Origin: Candidatus Thorarchaeota archaeon
GTDB lineage: Archaea > Asgardarchaeota > Thorarchaeia > Thorarchaeales > Thorarchaeaceae
Direction of reading: 5' to 3'
Assembly (NCBI GenBank): GCA_029858305.1
Contig: JAOUFI010000064.1
Location: 1 to 12,624 of the forward strand
DNA: 12,624 bases
Part shown: piece by piece, positions 292 through 11,087 of the stretch
Position numbering within the stretch: position 1 is the stretch's first letter
Layout: each line of letters begins with the position of its first letter
The notes under the pieces: generated by a model
Seen by the model: the letters and a program-made list of their open reading frames with translations, nothing else
The model's database searches: none
What the model was told of the DNA's origin: nothing
Position numbers and translations under genes: made by a program

Positions 292-1341
292 TTAGAGAAA
301 GCGAATATACTCTTTTCCCGACCCGTTCTTAGTACCGACCATGACTTGGTAGAAATGAGTATCTTCGTTGGTCATTGTGACCTTCTGAAGAGTTCCTGAT
401 ACTTCAACTTGGTCTCCATTTTCAAACAATCCCCCAAACGCTCCATCATATACCATTATTCGATTAATAGAGGAGTCGTTGTGTTTTATCGGATTTATTT
501 CATAGATTGCAGGGTGAAATATACTGAACTCCGCGTTCTTGATGGTCATACGAAGTGTTACAGGTTCGGTGGTCTGGGTAGTGTAAGACTCAGACCCATG
601 ATGAATTGGTGTTTCATCAGGAAATAGTACTGGAGTGATTCCTATACATCTATCTCCAATGCACAGAGCTTTTCGACGTGAAAAGAGAGCATCAAGATCG
701 GTTGGTCGAAGGACTTCAATACGATTGTGCACACGTCCGATTGCATGCTTCCACTCTGGAAGACTTCTAAGTCTGGCATGATTATCAAACCTATCAACTT
801 TCTCAAAATTGTTGTATAAAATCCAAGCATTTGTAAAGCCATAGATGTTCATATTGATGTCAGAATGTTTTGTGCTATGACCCTTCCATAGAATGCTACC
901 TGCAACTCCGAGATTGTCAAAGGAAATTCCGAGAGCGTCGTGCAGAGTTTCCGCAGCAGTCTTACTTAATACTTCCAGAGCATCAGTTGGTTCTTCCATG
1001 ATCTCCTTTAGTCTCAACTCGGGTCTGTAATATTCCATTATCGCACTACGAGGAGGTTCGACAAGATGCGTCTGGAAATGATTGTCCTCAATGATATAGT
1101 CTTTTGGAAGTATCGCCATTCCTTCAAGTGTCGAATCAACACTTCCCCAGAATGTGCGGCGGTATCTTATCCCTCCAGCTGCCCACATTCCATCTTCGGC
1201 TGGAATGTATTTGAGATATGAAAGAACTCTGTCAGATGGCTGGATGTAACCAAGTACGACAAATAATCTATTCTGGTGGTCTCTGAAGATATCCCGGTCT
1301 CGAAACCTTTCAGGCAAATCGACAGTATTGGGACTCGGCAA
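292..1341 (-). CDS. Archaeal predicted nucleotidyltransferase (COG1665-like, Pol-beta superfamily)
   Basis: 349 aa. N-terminal 'FRDRD...FVVLGY..P.DRV.SYLKY.P', central 'GVAGSILW...SDINMNIYG' (GS...DxD-type motif), C-terminal OB-like 'GD.VEVSGTL...VG'. TTG start with GAGGT 8 nt upstream. Confidence 0.75.
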   Translation of the reverse strand: MPSPNTVDLPERFRDRDIFRDHQNRLFVVLGYIQPSDRVLSYLKYIPAEDGMWAAGGIRYRRTFWGSVDSTLEGMAILPKDYIIEDNHFQTHLVEPPRSAIMEYYRPELRLKEIMEEPTDALEVLSKTAAETLHDALGISFDNLGVAGSILWKGHSTKHSDINMNIYGFTNAWILYNNFEKVDRFDNHARLRSLPEWKHAIGRVHNRIEVLRPTDLDALFSRRKALCIGDRCIGITPVLFPDETPIHHGSESYTTQTTEPVTLRMTIKNAEFSIFHPAIYEINPIKHNDSSINRIMVYDGAFGGLFENGDQVEVSGTLQKVTMTNEDTHFYQVMVGTKNGSGKEYIRFL

Positions 1342-2681: not shown

Positions 2682-3500
2682 CTACTTGCTAACTATTTTA
2701 GTGCAATTGACATTTAGTCCCTTGAGGAGAGCCTTAAGGTTTCCATACTTCATCATTGATATCAGGGTAGTTTCGAGACCATCTTCGATGAGGTCTTTAA
2801 CGACTGAGATATATGATAGTTTGCCCTTCATCGCTCCACTTGCATCGACTTTTCCTAATTGTTCAAGTCCTTCCATGACTCTGTCAAGGTCATTGATGTC
2901 AATCTCAGTCAGTAACTTTGCATGAGGGTTCTTCTTCGGATCCTCGTCATAAACTCCGAGCTCATCCATGGCAAAAATCAGACGTTTGGCTCGAAGATCA
3001 CGAGCCAAGATTATTGCTAGCTCATCACCGCTACCGATACTAAAACCCATAGTCTTGTCATAGAGTAGATCCCCTCCAAGGATGGGAATCATCCCTAAAG
3101 TCATCCAACCCTTCAATGGTTCGAAAGATGTCTTAGTGACTCGCATTTTCTCTGCAACTAGCATCGATGATGGATGAAGAAGGTTCACAGGCAATCCAGC
3201 CTCTTGAAACTCCTTTGTTATCATCAACCGAAACTCATTGACAATGCTTTGGGTCTTAGAGAGGGGGATGAATTGCTCAGGTCCTGTGAATCCCTTATAC
3301 AGCTTGTATTGGAGAACTGGAGGATGCCCAAATGAACCAACTCCATGGATAATGACAAGGGACTGAATCAGTCCCTCGTCTTTGCAGTCCTTTAGCTCTT
3401 TAGCTACAGCTGCAATTATGGACTTCCTCGCCTCGTATGGTCTTGATTTATCTGTGAGAAGGGACCCACCCAGCTTGATTACCGTGAGCTCTTTCTCCAT
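2682..3500 (-). CDS. ipk: Isopentenyl phosphate kinase (amino-acid kinase family)
   Basis: 272 aa. 'VIKLGGSLLTDK', 'IIHGVGSFGHP' with the IPK signature His, 'PILGGD', 'SGDEL', 'GVYDEDPK', 'DASGAMKGKL'. AAGGTGG SD upstream. Confidence 0.88.
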   Translation of the reverse strand: MEKELTVIKLGGSLLTDKSRPYEARKSIIAAVAKELKDCKDEGLIQSLVIIHGVGSFGHPPVLQYKLYKGFTGPEQFIPLSKTQSIVNEFRLMITKEFQEAGLPVNLLHPSSMLVAEKMRVTKTSFEPLKGWMTLGMIPILGGDLLYDKTMGFSIGSGDELAIILARDLRAKRLIFAMDELGVYDEDPKKNPHAKLLTEIDINDLDRVMEGLEQLGKVDASGAMKGKLSYISVVKDLIEDGLETTLISMMKYGNLKALLKGLNVNCTKIVSK

Positions 3501-3522: not shown

Positions 3523-4314
3523 TTAGATGGTTAGTAGTGCAAATGGCCACCATGCAGGAATTAAGTTGATGAAGAGAAGAATCACGACGATTACAGCAAT
3601 TGGAACTGTCCAGTTATCAAGATTCTTTGGTGTGAGAGCCTCGACTATTGTTGCGACTATTGAGATCACAAGTACGGGCAAGAACAACAGAACAAGGTCA
3701 AAAGCTGCATATTCTAGCGAGAAGATAGCGATTAAGATGTAGCTGAATAAGAAGGAACCGATTAGCATGCCAATCGAGCCCGCAATAGTCTTCTCTGCAC
3801 CACCAATGCCAAACTTCTTTGCACCTCCAAATTTCCTCCCAATGACATCAGCTAAACCATCTCCACCCGCAAGACACCCGAGAATCACAAAGGCTGTTGG
3901 ATTTCCAGCTGGAGAATAGAACCAGAGAAGTGTGACTATGCAGATAATGAGAGCATAGTAGAGGGTTCCTTTTAGCAATTCTTTTGGATCTCCAGACCTA
4001 GACATTGATCCTACGAATGCTTCATTCACGACTTTTCCCGTACCGATACCAACAAAGAGAAGCACAAACAGAACTGGTACAATCAAGGCAAGATAGCGAC
4101 TGAAGAGCGTACCAGAGTATAAATACCAAGTCACCAGAAAGACAGGAGCTGCAAATATATGAACAATTTTTCGTGTCACATCAGAAGAGAGTTTTCCACT
4201 CTTCTGAATTGCGCCGTTAACCAGAACTACTAGCATCACAGCGATGATTGAAATAACCATTGCAATGATATCCCATACTAGCTCCAGACCAGGACCTAAG
4301 AGATTGAGTACCAA
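3523..4314 (-). CDS. CTP-dependent polyprenol kinase (phytol kinase VTE5 / farnesol kinase FOLK / dolichol kinase family), integral membrane
   Basis: 263 aa, multi-TM. 'TRKIVHI', 'MSRSGDPKELLKGTLYY' (VTE5/FOLK-like), 'GGDGLADVIGRKFG', 'KTIAGS', 'VEAL...LDNWTVP'. TTG start with GGAGG 9 nt upstream. Confidence 0.88.
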   Translation of the reverse strand: MVLNLLGPGLELVWDIIAMVISIIAVMLVVLVNGAIQKSGKLSSDVTRKIVHIFAAPVFLVTWYLYSGTLFSRYLALIVPVLFVLLFVGIGTGKVVNEAFVGSMSRSGDPKELLKGTLYYALIICIVTLLWFYSPAGNPTAFVILGCLAGGDGLADVIGRKFGGAKKFGIGGAEKTIAGSIGMLIGSFLFSYILIAIFSLEYAAFDLVLLFLPVLVISIVATIVEALTPKNLDNWTVPIAVIVVILLFINLIPAWWPFALLTI

Positions 4315-4414: not shown

Positions 4415-5038
4415 CTAGCCAGATTCACGTATTTTGAGCGGTAAGTGAATCATCTGACTGATAGCCAACCAAAGCCTCGCCAAGATAGGGGTTAGAAGGA
4501 TGACAGAAGGAAGTCCTACGGTCAGAAGAGGCAACAAGACAAAGCCAAGCTCGACGAGTACTGATTGGTTTTCAATCACTAGTCCAATCATTACCAAAAT
4601 AAGTGCTGTGAAGACTAAACCAATGGTTGAAAGAACTGACATCTTACCTAGTGACCTACCTTTTGAGAAATCGTATGAGGAAAGTCCCACGATTAGTCCA
4701 AGAATTCCATAGGCTAATGCTTGAAGAGTCAGACTCACAATAACACCATAGAAGACTAAATCATGCAGAATGATTCCCAAGTACCCTGTGAGAAGCCCTG
4801 CAAGAGGTCCGCGAATTGCTCCAATCAGAGCAATGATAGCCAATGCAGGTGAAAGGCCGAACTTAAAGAGGGAAATCATGGTATAAGGCATAGGTATTGA
4901 ATAGATCAAAGCGAAAATCCCAGCACCAATTAGACCAAAAAGAAGTGTCAAAAGAGTCATTATGGGAGTCTGAACCCTGAGTTTTTTACCGATTGCGATC
5001 CTATTTCCATCAAGATTGCCAGCTGAGGCCTCAACCAT
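4415..5038 (-). CDS. ECF-type transporter substrate-binding S-component, substrate unknown
   Basis: 207 aa, about 6 TM segments. 'ALIGAIRGPLAGLLTGYLGIILHDLVFYG...YGILGLIVG' fits the S-component GP..G...G..G..L.D pattern. Its ATG is 2 nt after the upstream stop, and its SD (GGAGGGTGA) lies inside the upstream gene. Confidence 0.72.
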   Translation of the reverse strand: MVEASAGNLDGNRIAIGKKLRVQTPIMTLLTLLFGLIGAGIFALIYSIPMPYTMISLFKFGLSPALAIIALIGAIRGPLAGLLTGYLGIILHDLVFYGVIVSLTLQALAYGILGLIVGLSSYDFSKGRSLGKMSVLSTIGLVFTALILVMIGLVIENQSVLVELGFVLLPLLTVGLPSVILLTPILARLWLAISQMIHLPLKIRESG

Positions 5039-5040
5039 CC

Positions 5041-6681
5041 TTAGTCACCCTCCATGATAACCAATTGATATGTGCCGGGTTGCAATGTCAAAAGATAATC
5101 ACTTCCAGATGCAGTCAAATCTCCGATTGACACACCTCCAGAGTAGGCAGTCGGAACACCACTGAAGTTACTAAACGCCAACTCCGCGGTGCTATCGACC
5201 TTGATGTTCAGAATGAAACCGGATTTTATGGGGTCCCACTTTGCTTGATAGACCCAGATGTTATCATCGTCTGCGGAGCTGATATAGGGATAATTCCAGA
5301 ACTCTGTAGGACGTGAATCGGCAAGATCACGTACTGTGACCGACAACGTTGACCAGACTGAAAATCCTGAGAGGACTGATGACATAAATGGATCAAGTGA
5401 CGATGCATCATAGTACATCTCTCTTCCATCTTCGGACCAGACCTTATTGACCATTCCCTGCAGCAAGTTAAGAAGACGATCCCTTGTACTGAAATCGCCT
5501 CTCTGATTAGCAAGAACCATGGTAAAGACTGTACCCAAAATCCCAAACACATCACCAAACGAACTCGGATGTTTGTATGACCCCAGCATGTACATTGCAT
5601 CCCCAGACACATCCCGTCCATAAAGATCAAGGAATACTGGGTACTTGGGTATAGTAGAATCTGGAATGGTATATTCCAAAAAGGTGAGAGCCCATGCAGT
5701 TCCATAGGAAGAAAGACTTGGACCACCTACAGAATGATCGATAGCCTGCCCAGGGATTTGTTGTGGAAGAAGATCTGAATTTGGCCCCCAACCAACGGGT
5801 TTCTGAACAAAGTATCCGTTTGTATAGAGACCATACTCATCAGTGATGTTTGCCTCAATGAAATCAATACCATAGTCCCACATTCCACTCTCCATAAAAC
5901 TAGTCCCGTACATATTATCATAGAGCTCTGTGGTATAGATGGGAATACTATTACATTGTACAAATACGACATAGGGTTCACAGGGAATAAGACCTGTTCC
6001 CCAGAGCCCTCCGGGTTTTGGATTTCCAAGACGGTCCGTTGTTGTAGAGTTCTTCCAATCGATGATATATCCAGTTAGCTCATCTTCTACTGTTCCGAAG
6101 TTGAAGTTTCGTTCATAGAGAGCCATCATCAAGGCATAGTGGCCAGTCCACATAATATTCGCCGGACCTCTAAATCCTCCTGTGTATACATCATTAGCAT
6201 CAGGATAAGTGGCATTCGGGTAGTAATAATCAGTAAATCCAGGAATAGAAACCCATTCAGAGTACTCCATTGACTCGTTTCCGTACTCAGCAATAGAGGT
6301 ATTCATTCGAAGAATCTGTGCATGTGCAAAGTCCTCATAGAATGCAGTCCTATACCCAGAAGTGGTTTCACAGGTAGCAGCAAAGAGATATGCTAAAAAT
6401 GCGTTAATGTACTGAAGAGCCCAGCTGTATCTTTCTGCATTCCAACCGGCCCATTGATTTGGAGCCTGTTCTGTTATAAGGTGATCAAAATAGTTGATGA
6501 TTGCAATTTGTTCGTGAGTCAATGCAGGATAATCTCCAAAGCTGAAAATGGTGTCATTAATTACTTGGAATCCTTGTGACACTCCAGGCGAGGGTAAGTT
6601 GCTAAAGGTCATTCCACCAAGCACAATTGTAATGACGCAAGCACAAATAACGAACTTATTCTGTTTAAGAATCACGAACAT
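5041..6681 (-). CDS. Linalool dehydratase/isomerase (LinD)-like protein, exported or N-terminally anchored
   Basis: 546 aa with an N-terminal hydrophobic signal or anchor. Motifs are colinear with Castellaniella LinD as recalled: 'QYINAFLAY' (KYSIAFYAY), 'NIMWTGHYALM' (NIMYKGHLNLM), 'LIPCEPYVVFVQCNS' (IVCEPDNYFVQCNS), 'YDNMYGTSF' (YDRLHGTDY), 'SSYGTAWAL' (SAYTTAWTL). It also has a C-terminal beta-rich extension. Confidence 0.85.
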   Translation of the reverse strand: MFVILKQNKFVICACVITIVLGGMTFSNLPSPGVSQGFQVINDTIFSFGDYPALTHEQIAIINYFDHLITEQAPNQWAGWNAERYSWALQYINAFLAYLFAATCETTSGYRTAFYEDFAHAQILRMNTSIAEYGNESMEYSEWVSIPGFTDYYYPNATYPDANDVYTGGFRGPANIMWTGHYALMMALYERNFNFGTVEDELTGYIIDWKNSTTTDRLGNPKPGGLWGTGLIPCEPYVVFVQCNSIPIYTTELYDNMYGTSFMESGMWDYGIDFIEANITDEYGLYTNGYFVQKPVGWGPNSDLLPQQIPGQAIDHSVGGPSLSSYGTAWALTFLEYTIPDSTIPKYPVFLDLYGRDVSGDAMYMLGSYKHPSSFGDVFGILGTVFTMVLANQRGDFSTRDRLLNLLQGMVNKVWSEDGREMYYDASSLDPFMSSVLSGFSVWSTLSVTVRDLADSRPTEFWNYPYISSADDDNIWVYQAKWDPIKSGFILNIKVDSTAELAFSNFSGVPTAYSGGVSIGDLTASGSDYLLTLQPGTYQLVIMEGD

Positions 6682-7526: not shown

Positions 7527-7805
7527 TCATCTGCGGGTGTCCACCATAAGAAACTCTTGAAACAACTTCATTATTCGTAGAAGGTCGGTATGTATCTCTT
7601 CTTTCTCTTCGCCTCTTTGGCTTAGAAATTCCTGGAGTTGTGGGCTTTCAATCAAGGTCTCGAGGGCTGATTCTAGTTCTCTACTAAGATAGCGTATTGC
7701 ATACAATGTGGGAACAGGAATTCCACGTGAGGTGAATCCGTTAAGGAGAGTAATGGGAAGTGATTCTTCAGCGTCTTGTTTTTCTTGATGAAGATTCAAA
7801 TACAT
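7527..7805 (-). CDS. Small hypothetical helical protein
   Basis: The ORF track gives 7527..7880, but a GAGGTGA SD just upstream favours ATG 7805 or TTG 7799 (about 90 aa). The sequence is acidic and amphipathic and fills the gap between genes. No family recognised. Confidence 0.55.
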   Translation of the reverse strand: MYLNLHQEKQDAEESLPITLLNGFTSRGIPVPTLYAIRYLSRELESALETLIESPQLQEFLSQRGEEKEEIHTDLLRIMKLFQEFLMVDTRR

Positions 7806-7966
7806 CACCTCTAGGAAATAGGATGATTGCCTACAACTTTGACTATCTATTGTATACTCAGTAACCAAGATTATAATCACATATCAAAATCAAAGGGTGT
7901 GCAAGATGGAATTCAATAATTGAATCATCCTTAAAGAGTCTCATTGAGGCTGAGTGACCATTCAAT

Positions 7967-9607
7967 TTAATCGAGAGATGTGTTTGGCTTTTGTCTTAGA
8001 CCTATTGTACCTCGTCGTTTCAGTGTGACGATGAGGAGAACAATTAGAGTGATGCTCGAGAGTATGCCGATACTCAGATGTATGAAGAAGAGTGGAATCC
8101 CTCCTTCTGGGATAAGTCGTGGATAATGATCTATACTATCGCGGGATATTTGATAGGGGCCAATTCCATAGTAATCACTCCAACCATTGCCCTCACCTAC
8201 TCCATCATCCCATTCATTATAATAGTAGCATCCATCATATGCATTTGCTTGATCGTTCCAACCAATATCATTCCTGTAGATTCTATTCGCATAGCATCTT
8301 TCACCATATCCATCATATGCTGTACCTAGACAAATGCCATAATCATTGTAGGTAATGGAGTTCTGTACCACGAGACAATGACCACCGTAGATGTATAATC
8401 CAACACTGTTCTCTGAGATTGTATTTCCAATTGCTGTTGAATTGTTTGATAGAAAGAGCCCCACACCAGCATCGATAGCAAGGTATGGAAGCCTATTTCC
8501 ACGGATAGTGCAATTCACAATAGTACCATTGTTTGAGTAGATATGAGGGAGAATTCCATTCAGATTGTCTTCTAAGGTACAATTCTCAATCCGATAGAAT
8601 GGGCTTTGTGACAGAAATATTCCCTCCTCTAGACTATTATTCACTTGACAATCAACAATTCTGGTTCGAGGGGATCTTTCGATATACATTCCTTGCCAGC
8701 AGTCTGATATGATAGTTCCATCAACTGTGCAGTTGACGCATACTAGAAATTGCACCCCTGTCGTACAGGCTACAAGAGTTCCACCGCTAATTGTAATTTC
8801 AGTACAGTTACCGAGTATAATCTGACCATACAAATCCGCGTCAATTTGTGTTTCAGTAATATTATAGAACAGACCAATATCTTTGCCATTTACAGAATTG
8901 TTCTCCAAAACAGGAGGATTATTCGCTATTCGTGTGTCCCAGAACTCGATTCGAATCCCTGTGTTCTCAAAGATATTGTTTCTGAGTGTGGTATTTGCCA
9001 GATCAGGAGATATCGCTCCATATGTGAACTCGATGAAGGTATTATCAGAGATTATAGTGTCATTGCATGCATACATGGCTATACCTGTATGTCCATAGTT
9101 GAATTGGTTTTGCAGAATCTCACAGTGTGAGGATTCGTACATCCATATGGTTTCCCCAATATCATACAAATTGTATGAAAATGTGCTCCTGATAATATCA
9201 CAGTATGAGCTGTAGTCAATTGAAATTGAGCTGTTTACAAGTGTGCACTCATTGATTTTCCCATTCGATACGGAAACGAAAGTAATTTCTGCCAGCAGCA
9301 GCTGGCAATTTCTGATTTCAAAATAATAATCGATATCTAAAATTCGGATGTACAAATAATTTCCAATTGAACCCAGTGTTTTGTCCTCTAGGACAAAAGG
9401 ATTAGATTCAGAACCATTTCCAGACCAACCATTAGCTATGAAATCTTCTGCTGTATCAATCTCCATGTAATCATACGCACTTTGACTGAAATCCTCTCGG
9501 GATTCGCAAAAAGATGGAACATTCAAACCCATTGGTAAATACGAGAGAAACGAAGTAATTATGATGAACACTGTAAGACAAGCGACCATTATTAATTTCT
9601 GTTTCAA
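7967..9607 (-). CDS. Membrane-anchored right-handed parallel beta-helix (NosD/CASH-like) surface protein
   Basis: 546 aa. Signal peptide, 'GWSGNGSESNPFVLE', many I..N.I..N..GI repeats, 'NEWDDG..GNGWSDY...DHYP', then a C-terminal TM helix followed by KRR. TTG start. Confidence 0.85.
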   Translation of the reverse strand: MKQKLIMVACLTVFIIITSFLSYLPMGLNVPSFCESREDFSQSAYDYMEIDTAEDFIANGWSGNGSESNPFVLEDKTLGSIGNYLYIRILDIDYYFEIRNCQLLLAEITFVSVSNGKINECTLVNSSISIDYSSYCDIIRSTFSYNLYDIGETIWMYESSHCEILQNQFNYGHTGIAMYACNDTIISDNTFIEFTYGAISPDLANTTLRNNIFENTGIRIEFWDTRIANNPPVLENNSVNGKDIGLFYNITETQIDADLYGQIILGNCTEITISGGTLVACTTGVQFLVCVNCTVDGTIISDCWQGMYIERSPRTRIVDCQVNNSLEEGIFLSQSPFYRIENCTLEDNLNGILPHIYSNNGTIVNCTIRGNRLPYLAIDAGVGLFLSNNSTAIGNTISENSVGLYIYGGHCLVVQNSITYNDYGICLGTAYDGYGERCYANRIYRNDIGWNDQANAYDGCYYYNEWDDGVGEGNGWSDYYGIGPYQISRDSIDHYPRLIPEGGIPLFFIHLSIGILSSITLIVLLIVTLKRRGTIGLRQKPNTSLD

Positions 9608-9688
9608 CTAGCAGTCGACTCCAATAACCACATAATAGATACTTCTAAAAATTCGCTTAAATCCTCTCCTGGTTTTTTTTCCATCATG

Positions 9689-9696
9689 TTATATAC
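9689..9696 (+). promoter_or_regulatory. TATA box for a probably leaderless transcript of the TFB-like gene
   Basis: TTATATAC ends 21 nt before ATG 9718, the spacing expected for a leaderless archaeal mRNA. Confidence 0.5.
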
Positions 9697-9717
9697 TTAG
9701 TATGAGAGCCTTCGTCC

Positions 9718-10002
9718 ATGACAGAGTTCCAATTTGATATGATGAAGTCAGCACTTACAGAGCTGAACCTCCCCGAAGTAACTCATTTGGCTTGCCTGAC
9801 TATCTTGGACGATAAACGAACCAAAGATATCTTCACCGCCAAAAATACAAGAAATGTTATCGCAGGTGCAATCTACATTACTGCAATTCAAACAAACAAC
9901 CGTGTCACGCAACGTCAGATTGCCGATGTGGTAGGAGTTTCTAAATCTACAATTTACACATACTATGTGAGGATGGCTAAACTATTAGGGTTATACGGAT
10001 AG
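9718..10002 (+). CDS. Stand-alone TFB/TFIIB C-terminal cyclin-fold/HTH domain protein
   Basis: 94 aa. 'IAGAIYITA...NRVTQRQIADVVGVSKSTI...Y..MAK.LGL' matches the TFB second repeat (AAAALYIA...RRTQREVA.VAGVTEVTIRNRY). No Zn ribbon or first repeat. Confidence 0.8.
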   Translation: MTEFQFDMMKSALTELNLPEVTHLACLTILDDKRTKDIFTAKNTRNVIAGAIYITAIQTNNRVTQRQIADVVGVSKSTIYTYYVRMAKLLGLYG

Positions 10003-10112
10003 ACAATATAGTCTTCTTTCATCAAAGATTAGCTATGCGGCAATCGCTCTATCTGATGACGAGATTTATCTGTGGGAATCTCGTCAATGGTGAGAGAACG
10101 TGTGTGGCCCAA

Positions 10113-11087
10113 ATGATAAAGACCAAAGTAACCGAGATGCTTGGATGTAAATATCCGATTATATCCGGAACCATGGCTAGGATTTCCAATCCTGAATTTG
10201 TCGCGGCATCTAGCAATGCGGGTGCATGTGCGGTATTAGCAAGTGCAAACTACAAGTCTCCTGATGATCTTCGTGATGCAATTAGAAAGACTCAGTCTCT
10301 AACAAATCAACCATTTGCAGTCAATATCAATTTGTTTCCTGCTTTAATGCCTCAAGAAAAGCTAGAGGATTATGTGGATGCTACATTAGCCGAGGGCGTG
10401 AAAATCATTGAAACAAGTGGTCATAAGGCACCAGAGAACTTAGTTCCTAAATTCAAGAACAGTGGTGCTATTTGGATTCACAAATGTGCTGGAGTGAGAT
10501 ACGCAAAGAAAGGAGCATCCTTGGGTGCGGATATTGTAACGGTTGTCGGATATGAAAATGGTGGAGCTACCGGGACTCTAGATATAGGAACGATGGTAAT
10601 GATTCCATCCGTTGTTGATGCTCTAGATGTTCCTGTGATCGCCGGAGGTGGAATAACAGATGGCAGAGGTGTTGCCGCAGCCTTGGTACTGGGTGCTGAA
10701 GGAGTAATTATGGGTACAAGGATGATGGCTACAAAAGAATGTCCCATTCATGACAATCTCAAACAGGCTTTTATCAAGGCTGCAGAAACTGATACAGTTC
10801 TGGCCTTGCGTTCGGTTGGAAATACACACAGGATATGGAACAATAAGGCGGCGCAACATGTACTTGAGTTGGAGGCACAAAAATCACCCCTATTCATGCT
10901 CATTCAAGCCGCCTCTGGAGATAAGGCGCAAGAGATGTACAGAAATGGAGATATTGATCTCGGAGTGGTAGCATGTGGTCAAGGTGTAGGCTTGATTAAT
11001 GATATTCCCACTGTTAAGGAATTATTGGATAGAATAATGGTTGAGGCTGAAGAAAATATTTCACGACTTCATGGCAGATTCGAGTAG
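10113..11087 (+). CDS. Nitronate monooxygenase / FabK-like FMN-dependent oxidoreductase
   Basis: 'KTKVTEMLGCKYPII', 'PFAVNI', 'VPVIAGGGITDGRG', 'GAEGVIMGTR', 'GQGVGLINDIPTV'. The family N-terminus favours ATG 10113, or GTG 10104 with a GGTGA SD, over ATG 10035. Confidence 0.9.
   Translation: MIKTKVTEMLGCKYPIISGTMARISNPEFVAASSNAGACAVLASANYKSPDDLRDAIRKTQSLTNQPFAVNINLFPALMPQEKLEDYVDATLAEGVKIIETSGHKAPENLVPKFKNSGAIWIHKCAGVRYAKKGASLGADIVTVVGYENGGATGTLDIGTMVMIPSVVDALDVPVIAGGGITDGRGVAAALVLGAEGVIMGTRMMATKECPIHDNLKQAFIKAAETDTVLALRSVGNTHRIWNNKAAQHVLELEAQKSPLFMLIQAASGDKAQEMYRNGDIDLGVVACGQGVGLINDIPTVKELLDRIMVEAEENISRLHGRFE

Follow-up and report, generated by a model that had tools for sequence, protein, structure and literature searches.

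The 12,624-nucleotide stretch analysed here, contig JAOUFI010000064.1 of a Candidatus Thorarchaeota archaeon assembly (GCA_029858305.1; hereafter the window), encodes on its reverse strand a 546-aa protein, P0001 (positions 5041-6681), which is a bona fide member of the linalool dehydratase/isomerase (Ldi) family. The next gene on the same strand encodes P0175, a 207-aa membrane protein (positions 4415-5038) whose predicted structure is that of the S components of energy-coupling factor (ECF) transporters, and this obligate S-component-fold partner is the strongest clue to the function of the enzyme. Our results suggest that P0001 is anchored in the membrane and faces outward, and we see an even chance that it works as an allylic hydratase/isomerase handing its product to, or taking its substrate from, the partner. 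The two-protein module is specific to an archaeal clade and appears to be new, the naming of the enzyme being in part already available, since a few NCBI records designate homologs of P0001 as "linalool dehydratase/isomerase domain-containing protein".

The assignment of P0001 to the Ldi family is supported at the levels of sequence, profile and structure. The open reading frame (ORF) comprises 546 codons and its translation contains no internal stop. The Pfam Ldi model (PF18566) matches the protein with 59.8 bits (cut-off 26.1, E-value 4.3e-16), aligning to residues 230-293 only, and a profile built from 74 homologs of P0001 matches the chain 5i3t of LinD, the enzyme of Castellaniella defragrans, at positions 30-416 with an E-value of 4.7e-69. 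The AlphaFold2 model computed on the homolog alignment (predicted local distance difference test, pLDDT, 93.9; predicted template modelling score, pTM, 0.92) superposes on LinD with a VIA-align Z of 40.1 and a root-mean-square deviation of 2.2 Å over 345 of 363 residues (model residues 29-462). In a Foldseek search of the PDB, the LinD chains are by far the top matches (E-value 5.3e-14, TMt 0.79), and in VIA-align the next folds, GH105 (Z 22.5), GH88, GH76 and sugar epimerases, have Z values of 20-22.5. A first, sequence-only reading of this DNA had proposed an archaeal Ldi homolog, expected to form an (alpha/alpha)6 barrel, and the Pfam match and the superposition bear this out.

The protein consists of three parts: a membrane anchor, the barrel, which spans approximately residues 28-463, and an all-beta domain at the C-terminus (residues 466-543, positions 5053-5286, reverse strand), whose strands run from 466-470 to 536-543 in the model. 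This last domain is not present in LinD, with which the alignments end at approximately model residue 463. It has no Pfam match, and its best score in the ESM Atlas was 0.88 (0.83 for the Heparinase II C-terminal domain), both under the level at which such matches are counted. Insertions relative to a LinD-like sequence are located at approximately residues 129-136, 147-172, 205-232 and 296-320 in the alignment, so that the insertions and the additional beta domain noticed from the sequence alone are both recovered. The identity with LinD in the structural alignment is 21-22%. Given this low identity, its position in a separate clade, the missing capping disulfide and the extra anchor and beta domain, P0001 is not a LinD orthologue.

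The two motifs that form the core of the LinD active site are located at residues 175-181 (NIMWTGH, positions 6139-6159) and 234-244 (CEPYVVFVQCN, positions 5950-5982) of P0001, both on the reverse strand. In the LinD chains, HMMER pairs them with NIMYKGH and CEPDNYFVQCN, residue 175 corresponding to chain residue 123 in the 372-residue chains (5g1u, 7ad2). In this alignment, M177 and H181 are equivalent to M125 and H129 of LinD, and C234, E235, F240, Q242 and C243 to C171, E172, F177, Q179 and C180. The residue numbers of LinD agree with the titles of the PDB entries 6thm (M125A), 6tft (C171A, with C171A and C171S both occurring) and 6tfr (C180A), although the numbering of the cysteines varies by source, C171/C180 being the same residues as C170/C179, and C48-C101 the same as C49-C102. 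Both the coordinates of these motifs and residues and their correspondence to LinD, which the sequence-only reading had given, are thus confirmed by the translation of the window, the HMMER alignment and the titles of the PDB mutants.

Conservation was counted in 128 homologs of the archaeal clade, each of at least 500 aa and with identities down to approximately 30%. Both C234 and C243 are kept in all of them, M177, Y91, N175 and N244 each in 127, and H181 in 126. The remaining positions are slightly more variable, with F240 in 121, E235 in 120 (Q in seven) and Q242 in 102 homologs (N in 21). The two cysteines are likewise invariant in all 74 rows of the alignment A1, and they and the flanking asparagines do not vary in its 19 bacterial rows or in the 22 rows of the alignment A3. 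As reported in PMC6600392, LinD needs four cysteines, the Ala or Ser variants of each being inactive: C170 and C179 are catalytic, with activity requiring the reduced state, and C48-C101 form an essential disulfide that caps the active site. LinD is pentameric, with the dimer as its minimal unit, and its active site lies where subunits meet (PMC6600392; PMC6013536). Because the barrel and the pocket residues around both cysteines are kept in P0001, the same chemistry as in LinD is the most likely one.

The N-terminus of P0001 contains a hydrophobic helix (residues 8-30, positions 6592-6660, reverse strand), detected as a hydropathy segment at residues 3-21, as a helix at residues 9-27 in the AlphaFold2 model and again in the predicted complex described below. 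Two lysines, K6 and K9, are found within residues 1-9, and the helix is conserved across the orthologs as "NKF...". By the positive-inside rule, we infer that this helix is an uncleaved signal anchor, which would leave most of the protein on the outer side of the membrane. N-glycosylation sequons are not significant as a sign of this external location in P0001: seven are present against 3.9 expected, and seven are reached in 147 of 2000 shuffles. The sequence-only reading was silent on the N-terminal helix, on the missing structural cysteine pair and on the conserved downstream partner gene.

The genes of P0001 and P0175 are tightly arranged, with only 2 nt between the Ldi stop codon (TAA, 5041-5043) and the ATG of P0175 (5036-5038). 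A Shine-Dalgarno-like GGAGG (positions 5049-5053, reverse strand) is located in the last Ldi codons, 10 nt upstream of this ATG, from which the translation of the two genes would appear to be coupled. A scan for promoters and terminators found four promoter-like sites against 9.4 expected, although its consensus is bacterial and therefore uninformative for an archaeal host. All 41 copies of the Ldi gene with at least 700 nt of downstream sequence are followed immediately by a hydrophobic ORF of approximately 200 aa (39 by script and two, L041 and L042, by eye after placement of the start codon). This synteny extends over Thor-, Heimdall-, Hod- and Atabeyarchaeia and includes one Methanomethyliaceae metagenome-assembled genome (MAG). 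The pair has also been duplicated as a unit in a Promethearchaeota and a Thorarchaeota MAG (L010:5932-10672 and L011:2112-8024), and both genes are present twice in several genomes of the family, among them G352, G335, G365, G376 and G381. Among 86 genomes of the family, 45 have both genes, one the Ldi gene alone, two the partner alone and 38 neither; the Ldi gene standing alone (G312) is cut by a contig end, and the partner stands alone in G382, as fragments, and in G391. Related genomes are not independent observations, but this pattern of co-occurrence needs repeated joint gain or loss of the two genes.

In its structural model (pLDDT 90.9), P0175 is predicted to be a six-helix protein with the ECF S-component fold. 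It matches the Pfam family ECF-ribofla_trS (PF07155) with 30.0 bits (cut-off 26.7), as do 33 of 42 P0175 orthologs at an E-value of at most 0.01. The top 26 ranks of a Foldseek search of the PDB are all ECF S components (ThiT, RibU, BioY, FolT and PanT), with probabilities of 0.80-1.00 and TMt values of 0.50-0.67, RibU reaching 0.64-0.67. P0175 is not RibU itself, as the NCBIfam RibU equivalog model gave 31.9 bits against a cut-off of 99. EcfT/CbiQ is encoded twice elsewhere in the genome, whose EcfAA'T genes are located on contigs C185 and C180, and two further S-component genes are also present.

The prediction of a complex between P0001 and P0175 gave an ipSAE of 0.78 (0.80, 0.77 and 0.78 in the individual runs), compared with 0.00 for the best of three controls. 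Of 157 solved complexes, 116 reach the ipSAE mark that we used, compared with two of 215 mismatched pairs; these counts apply only approximately here, since the prediction was made with custom alignments. The runs share at least 96% of their contacts, and the pLDDT of the partner is at least 83. In the predicted complex, the anchor helix (residues 8-30) packs along the membrane helices of P0175, its cytoplasmic end (residues 8-11) lying close to P0175 residues 125-131, whereas residues 24-30 at the outer end are close to residues 49-54. The barrel loops 356-364, 372-376 and 398-428 cover the outer loops 49-62, 89-106 and 156-170 of the partner, the predicted contacts including those of enzyme residues 358-361 and 409-412 with partner residues 52-54 and 92-97. 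The predicted interface is topologically coherent. In S components, the outer loops close the ligand pocket. We know of no solved complex of an Ldi-like enzyme with an S component, and it seems unlikely that the prediction passed by reproducing a memorised structure.

A word-indexed protein search retrieved 215 relatives of P0001. Among the 120 matches listed, lengths are approximately 410-585 aa, mostly around 545 aa, identities are 50-85%, and the named sequences almost all come from Thorarchaeota MAGs. An exhaustive search of representative sequences recovered 54 clusters, 10 of them below an E-value of 1e-30, and the distant full-length matches that were scanned are all Ldi-family proteins. 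In species-representative genomes, copies are present in Thorarchaeota and, at lower identity, in Atabeyarchaeia (34%), Heimdall- and Hodarchaeota (32-35%) and the Methanomethyliaceae MAG (34%). The gene was found in 53 of 400 genomes of the phylum, with 45 of 85 in the family of the window and none of 135 in the largest other family. Several of the genomes that do not have it are more than 90% complete, and the window's own genome (3.04 Mb, 88.9% complete) contains one copy. This patchy distribution indicates an accessory function rather than a role in core metabolism. Nearly identical DNA is present in sediment, estuary, soil and sludge metagenomes from nine studies.

In a quick IQ-TREE search, a branch with an SH-aLRT of 98 separated 55 rows of the archaeal type from the LinD-like P0162, the archaeal label being assumed for four metagenome proteins. 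The nearest bacterial rows were LinD-like sequences, with a weak support of 46, in a sequence set that did not contain the Thauera Lis. The single copy outside Asgard archaea (L037, from the Methanomethyliaceae MAG) clustered tightly with the Atabeyarchaeia sequences L039 and L040, with branch lengths of 0.18-0.24, a placement that could reflect either gene transfer or a binning error.

From these observations, P0001 would be a type-II anchored Ldi-family ectoenzyme, tethered by its N-terminal helix and facing outward, and sitting on the outer loops of the six-helix S-component-fold protein encoded by the next gene. Its chemistry would be cofactor-free, redox-neutral acid/base catalysis, in which an allylic alcohol or a conjugated alkene is protonated to give an allyl cation that then re-adds or loses water, with hydration, dehydration or a 1,3-hydroxyl shift as the outcome. 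As for the substrate, it would be hydrophobic and probably an isoprenoid, not necessarily linalool, and our favoured guess is a C15-C20 isoprenoid alcohol. Since the S-component loops contacted by the enzyme are those that cover the ligand pocket, the converted molecule may be handed to the partner, or the substrate received from it. Uptake could proceed through one of the ECF energising modules of the genome or through the partner acting alone.

Several observations weigh against this proposal. The likeness of P0175 to S components is modest, the best Foldseek E-value being 2.4e-3 (ThiT), with none at or below 0.001, and the Pfam match being the one of 30.0 bits. No ECF module adjoins the pair in the window or in the loci examined, and three Heimdall/Hod loci (L041-L043, approximately 8030-10560) have a MacB-type ABC system after it. 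At the predicted interface, the residues of the enzyme show no higher conservation than its remaining ectodomain (0.595 versus 0.649). The gene is patchy even in the genus of the window (12 of 27 genomes). The hint of transcription consists of one 227-nt contig within the Ldi gene in one sediment RNA library; the same library contains a 191-nt contig inside P0176, the gene that follows the pair, and no contig bridging genes, and DNA carry-over could explain these matches.

Other difficulties concern the active site itself. D39' of the neighbouring subunit and Y45 are reported to line the LinD pocket as well. In the profile alignment, D39 pairs with I69 of P0001, in an indel region where the alignment is uncertain; valine occupies this position in 78 and isoleucine in 21 of the 128 archaeal-clade homologs, and Y45 falls in an insert of the same region. 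Given that the LinD pocket lies at the subunit interface and that D39' is unconserved by alignment, the P0001 pocket would have to be completed differently. The capping disulfide of LinD has no counterpart either, its cysteines aligning approximately to N75 and T128, and no third conserved cysteine column was found among the 128 homologs (C104 is present in 10). The LinD-like P0162 (E-value 8.4e-72 to 5i3t) also has no cysteine at either of the two capping columns of A1, and because this closer relative of LinD lacks them too, the disulfide cap may be special to LinD. The "intact two-cysteine active site" of the sequence-only reading is thus partly supported: both cysteines are kept together with M, H, E, F and Q and the core appears intact, but the capping disulfide is absent, D39' is unconserved by alignment, and the parts that LinD derives from its cap and from the neighbouring subunit may differ.

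Downstream of the pair, the same strand carries two genes that give the locus an isoprenoid-leaning context, which we treat as a lead since it consists only of these genes and they are linked to the pair in some Thorarchaeota only. P0176 (positions 3523-4314, reverse strand) is an eight-helix membrane protein resembling polyprenol/phytol kinases of the CTP-transferase type. No Pfam match was obtained for it even at an E-value of 10, and the resemblance comes from the ESM Atlas, where 29 of 30 matches belong to cytidylyltransferase or diacylglycerol/polyprenol kinase clusters with scores of 0.94-0.95, likewise a lead only. The following gene, which starts 22 nt after P0176 (positions 2682-3500, reverse strand), belongs to the isopentenyl phosphate kinase (IPK) family (NCBIfam NF040647, 160.1 bits, cut-off 120) and is the second of its kind in the genome, the other being located on contig C157 (188.1 bits). 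For neither gene is a link to the pair established. Relatives of P0176 are present in 64 of the 86 family genomes. Phytol salvage in plants uses a cassette of two kinases, and P0176 and the IPK may, by analogy, form a two-step cassette for the phosphorylation of prenols or phytol, which would be in keeping with an isoprenoid substrate of the enzyme. As a conserved partner of the pair, this cassette was rejected, as it lies within approximately 4 kb of the pair in some Thorarchaeota loci only and in none of the distant lineages. Nor does P0176 co-vary with the Ldi gene: it was found in 36 of the 46 family genomes that have the Ldi gene and in 28 of the 40 without. A literature search on prenol salvage with IPK found nothing on archaea.

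It is conceivable, if improbable, that the four same-strand genes (Ldi, P0175, P0176 and IPK) salvage sedimentary isoprenoids for archaeal lipid synthesis. In such a route, a C15-C20 version of LinD would hydrate myrcene-type dienes (phytadienes, for instance) or isomerise tertiary alcohols (isophytol, geranyllinalool or nerolidol, for instance) into a primary allylic alcohol, the partner would capture and import this alcohol, and the two kinases would convert it into an allylic diphosphate for the ether-lipid synthases. If true, this would make P0175 the first S component of the ECF type to be served by an ectoenzyme of its own, and the route the first case of prenol salvage in archaea. The sequence-only reading had suggested a different, perhaps longer, substrate, which is likewise speculative, and had speculated on a variant of this idea, the release of geranylgeraniol from unsaturated archaeal ether lipids as a way of recycling necromass. 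Here, protonation of the allylic ether oxygen in such lipids, left behind by dead cells, would set free a C20 alcohol for import. The apparent external location of the enzyme and its uptake-type partner agree with this variant, as do the prenol-kinase-like gene and the IPK paralog that adjoin the pair in some Thorarchaeota and the presence of these organisms in sediments. Nevertheless, mature archaeal lipids are saturated, and the kinase genes show no co-variation with the Ldi gene. Dehydration by LinD needs an alpha-methylallyl alcohol motif, and its scope as summarised in PMC6013536 includes the dehydration of ether analogs but not the cleavage of ethers. We rank this variant as the least probable of the explanations considered here.

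Three further explanations change the role of one of the two proteins. The partner might not be an importer but might present a membrane isoprenoid lipid (a polyprenol, a quinone-like molecule or an unsaturated archaeal lipid), so that the enzyme would modify the envelope lipids of its own cell, for example by hydration. The anchoring of the enzyme and the predicted packing of its anchor helix on the partner fit this possibility, as do the missing adjoining ECF module, the ABC systems found after the pair in other lineages (MacB/FtsX in L041-L043 and ABC-2 in L044) and the polyprenol-kinase-like gene downstream in the window. However, the patchiness of the gene, both in the genus and in the phylum, makes a role in core lipids unlikely, S components bind small soluble micronutrients, usually vitamins, and no lipid carrying the expected tertiary hydroxyl is known to us from these organisms; overall, we consider this explanation unlikely. 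A similar, rather low probability is given to a different reaction on a non-isoprenoid substrate, be it the addition of water to a vinyl or enol ether or to an unsaturated sugar, a reaction of the GH105/GH88 kind, or a thiol-dependent isomerisation of a vitamin precursor, followed by import through the S component. The sugar-active folds that come next after LinD, the identity to LinD of only about 21%, the large insertions that reshape the surface and the vitamins usually carried by S components would all be compatible with it. In contrast, the gap between LinD (Z 40) and these sugar enzymes is wide, the conserved set of C, C, M, H, E and Y is that of LinD instead of the Asp/Glu pairs of glycosidases, and no carbohydrate-active genes are conserved beside the pair in the loci examined.

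Finally, the Ldi-like domain might no longer be an enzyme but an extracellular binding cap or substrate-capture protein for the S component. CbiN, NikK and NikL are extracytoplasmic components of ECF systems and offer a parallel, and the missing capping disulfide and D39' of LinD also agree with this reading. Yet C234 and C243 never vary, and M, H, E and Y hardly do, down to identities of approximately 30%, where a pure binder would be expected to drift, and the loss of activity is thus very doubtful. We therefore retain an outward-facing enzyme with LinD-like chemistry that exchanges its product or substrate with P0175.

The genes after the pair differ among lineages. In the three Heimdall/Hod loci mentioned above, they encode a 150-aa protein, a MacB_PCD/FtsX permease and an ABC ATPase, and in L044 (8699-11299) an ABC ATPase and an ABC-2 permease. 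A membrane protein located approximately 460 nt downstream of the pair in L039 has a sub-threshold ICMT match (E-value 7.8e-4). In seven loci (L007, L009, L013, L020, L026, L029 and L035), the pair is immediately followed by a divergent Fur-family regulator and a 1-Cys peroxiredoxin, and in L008 by the peroxiredoxin only; in several Thorarchaeota loci, the regulator and the peroxiredoxin separate the pair from the kinase-like cassette or from a GT4 gene. These two proteins may possibly help to keep external thiols reduced, or their position may be mere synteny.

Elsewhere in the window, a 546-aa protein of the NosD/right-handed beta-helix type (positions 7967-9607, reverse strand) has hydrophobic N- and C-terminal segments and many N-x-S/T sequons. 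This probable surface protein has a conserved location close to the pair in L005, L006 and L007. Two ORFs of 349 aa (292-1341, reverse strand) and 117 aa (7527-7880, reverse strand) have no Pfam or NCBIfam match and occupy conserved positions in many Thorarchaeota loci. A 94-aa ORF (9718-10002, forward strand), upstream of a gene of the nitronate-monooxygenase family, contains only one TFIIB cyclin-like repeat and a helix-turn-helix, and corresponds to a stand-alone C-terminal fragment of a TFB.

The genomic context of bacterial Ldi genes is of another kind. A metagenome scan with the bacterial Ldi alignment retrieved 476 relatives, from which 80 loci were kept (L055-L134), all found with one peptide pattern and thus representing one subfamily (the P0159 type), mostly from marine metagenomes. 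The partner profile detected no S-component-like ORF in these 80 loci at an E-value of up to 1, compared with 43 matches in the archaeal loci used as a control. Counted over 73 loci, the neighbours include DsbA-like proteins (45), zinc alcohol dehydrogenases (28), TonB receptors (14), acyl-CoA ligases (13), pyrroloquinoline quinone-dependent alcohol dehydrogenases (10), aldehyde dehydrogenases (7) and TetR regulators (7). The P0159-type loci look like an uncharacterised and widespread marine cluster for the catabolism of alcohols or terpenoids, and this catabolic alcohol context fits LinD-like chemistry for the Ldi family at large.

The Ldi family contains one of the very few enzymes that add or remove water at unactivated alkenes without a cofactor. 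Here, the catalytic core of LinD is found in a new setting, that is, in Asgard archaea, apparently at the cell surface, without the disulfide and genetically locked to a protein with the S-component fold. If the predicted complex is real, it would represent a new mode of supply for an S component, in which an enzyme acts as gatekeeper, and a new nutrient-acquisition trait of sediment Asgard archaea. In addition, more than 100 natural variants with altered pockets are on offer for biocatalysis.

Only two members of the Ldi family have been characterised, both betaproteobacterial (PMC6013536; PMC4791888), as the sequence-only reading had also stated, and the literature searched contained no paper linking Ldi to archaea, partners of the S-component type not being targeted in this search. 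The first is LinD (EC 4.2.1.127; 5g1u, 5hss and 5i3t), with which P0001 shares the same barrel over nearly the whole LinD chain, the NIMxxGH and CEPxxxFVQCN motifs, both catalytic cysteines and the equivalents of M125, H129 and E172. Both proteins have an N-terminal signal for export or anchoring (for LinD, as given in PMC6013536), although P0001 is membrane-anchored by its predicted helix whereas LinD is soluble. P0001 further differs in its beta domain, its insertions and its S-component-like partner, and in having, by alignment, neither the capping disulfide nor D39'. The second is Lis of Thauera linaloolentis, described as a membrane-bound member of the family which is active only when reduced and in which four N-terminal transmembrane helices are fused to an Ldi-like domain predicted to be cytoplasmic (PMC4791888). 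Compared with Lis, P0001 has a single anchor helix and a domain that would lie outside the cell, and the multi-helix protein is a separate gene. P0175 was also considered as a relative of the N-terminal membrane part of the Lis-like P0152 and rejected (hhalign probability 0.16%).

Among uncharacterised bacterial proteins, those of the P0159 type (approximately 540 aa) share with P0001 the invariant cysteine pair, the N and E residues and the total length, and have signal peptides or lipoprotein-like N-termini. The matches of P0001 to the bacterial P0148, P0151 and P0163 extend to approximately residue 500, beyond the end of the barrel. For its part, P0175 shares the six-helix fold and PF07155 with the ECF S components, and EcfT/CbiQ are encoded elsewhere in the genome, as is the case for scattered S components. 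Some ECF-type metal transporters use extra extracytoplasmic components, namely CbiN, NikK and NikL, but to our knowledge no S component has a dedicated 60-kDa ectoenzyme as a partner, the arrangement suggested here by the pairing of P0001 with P0175.

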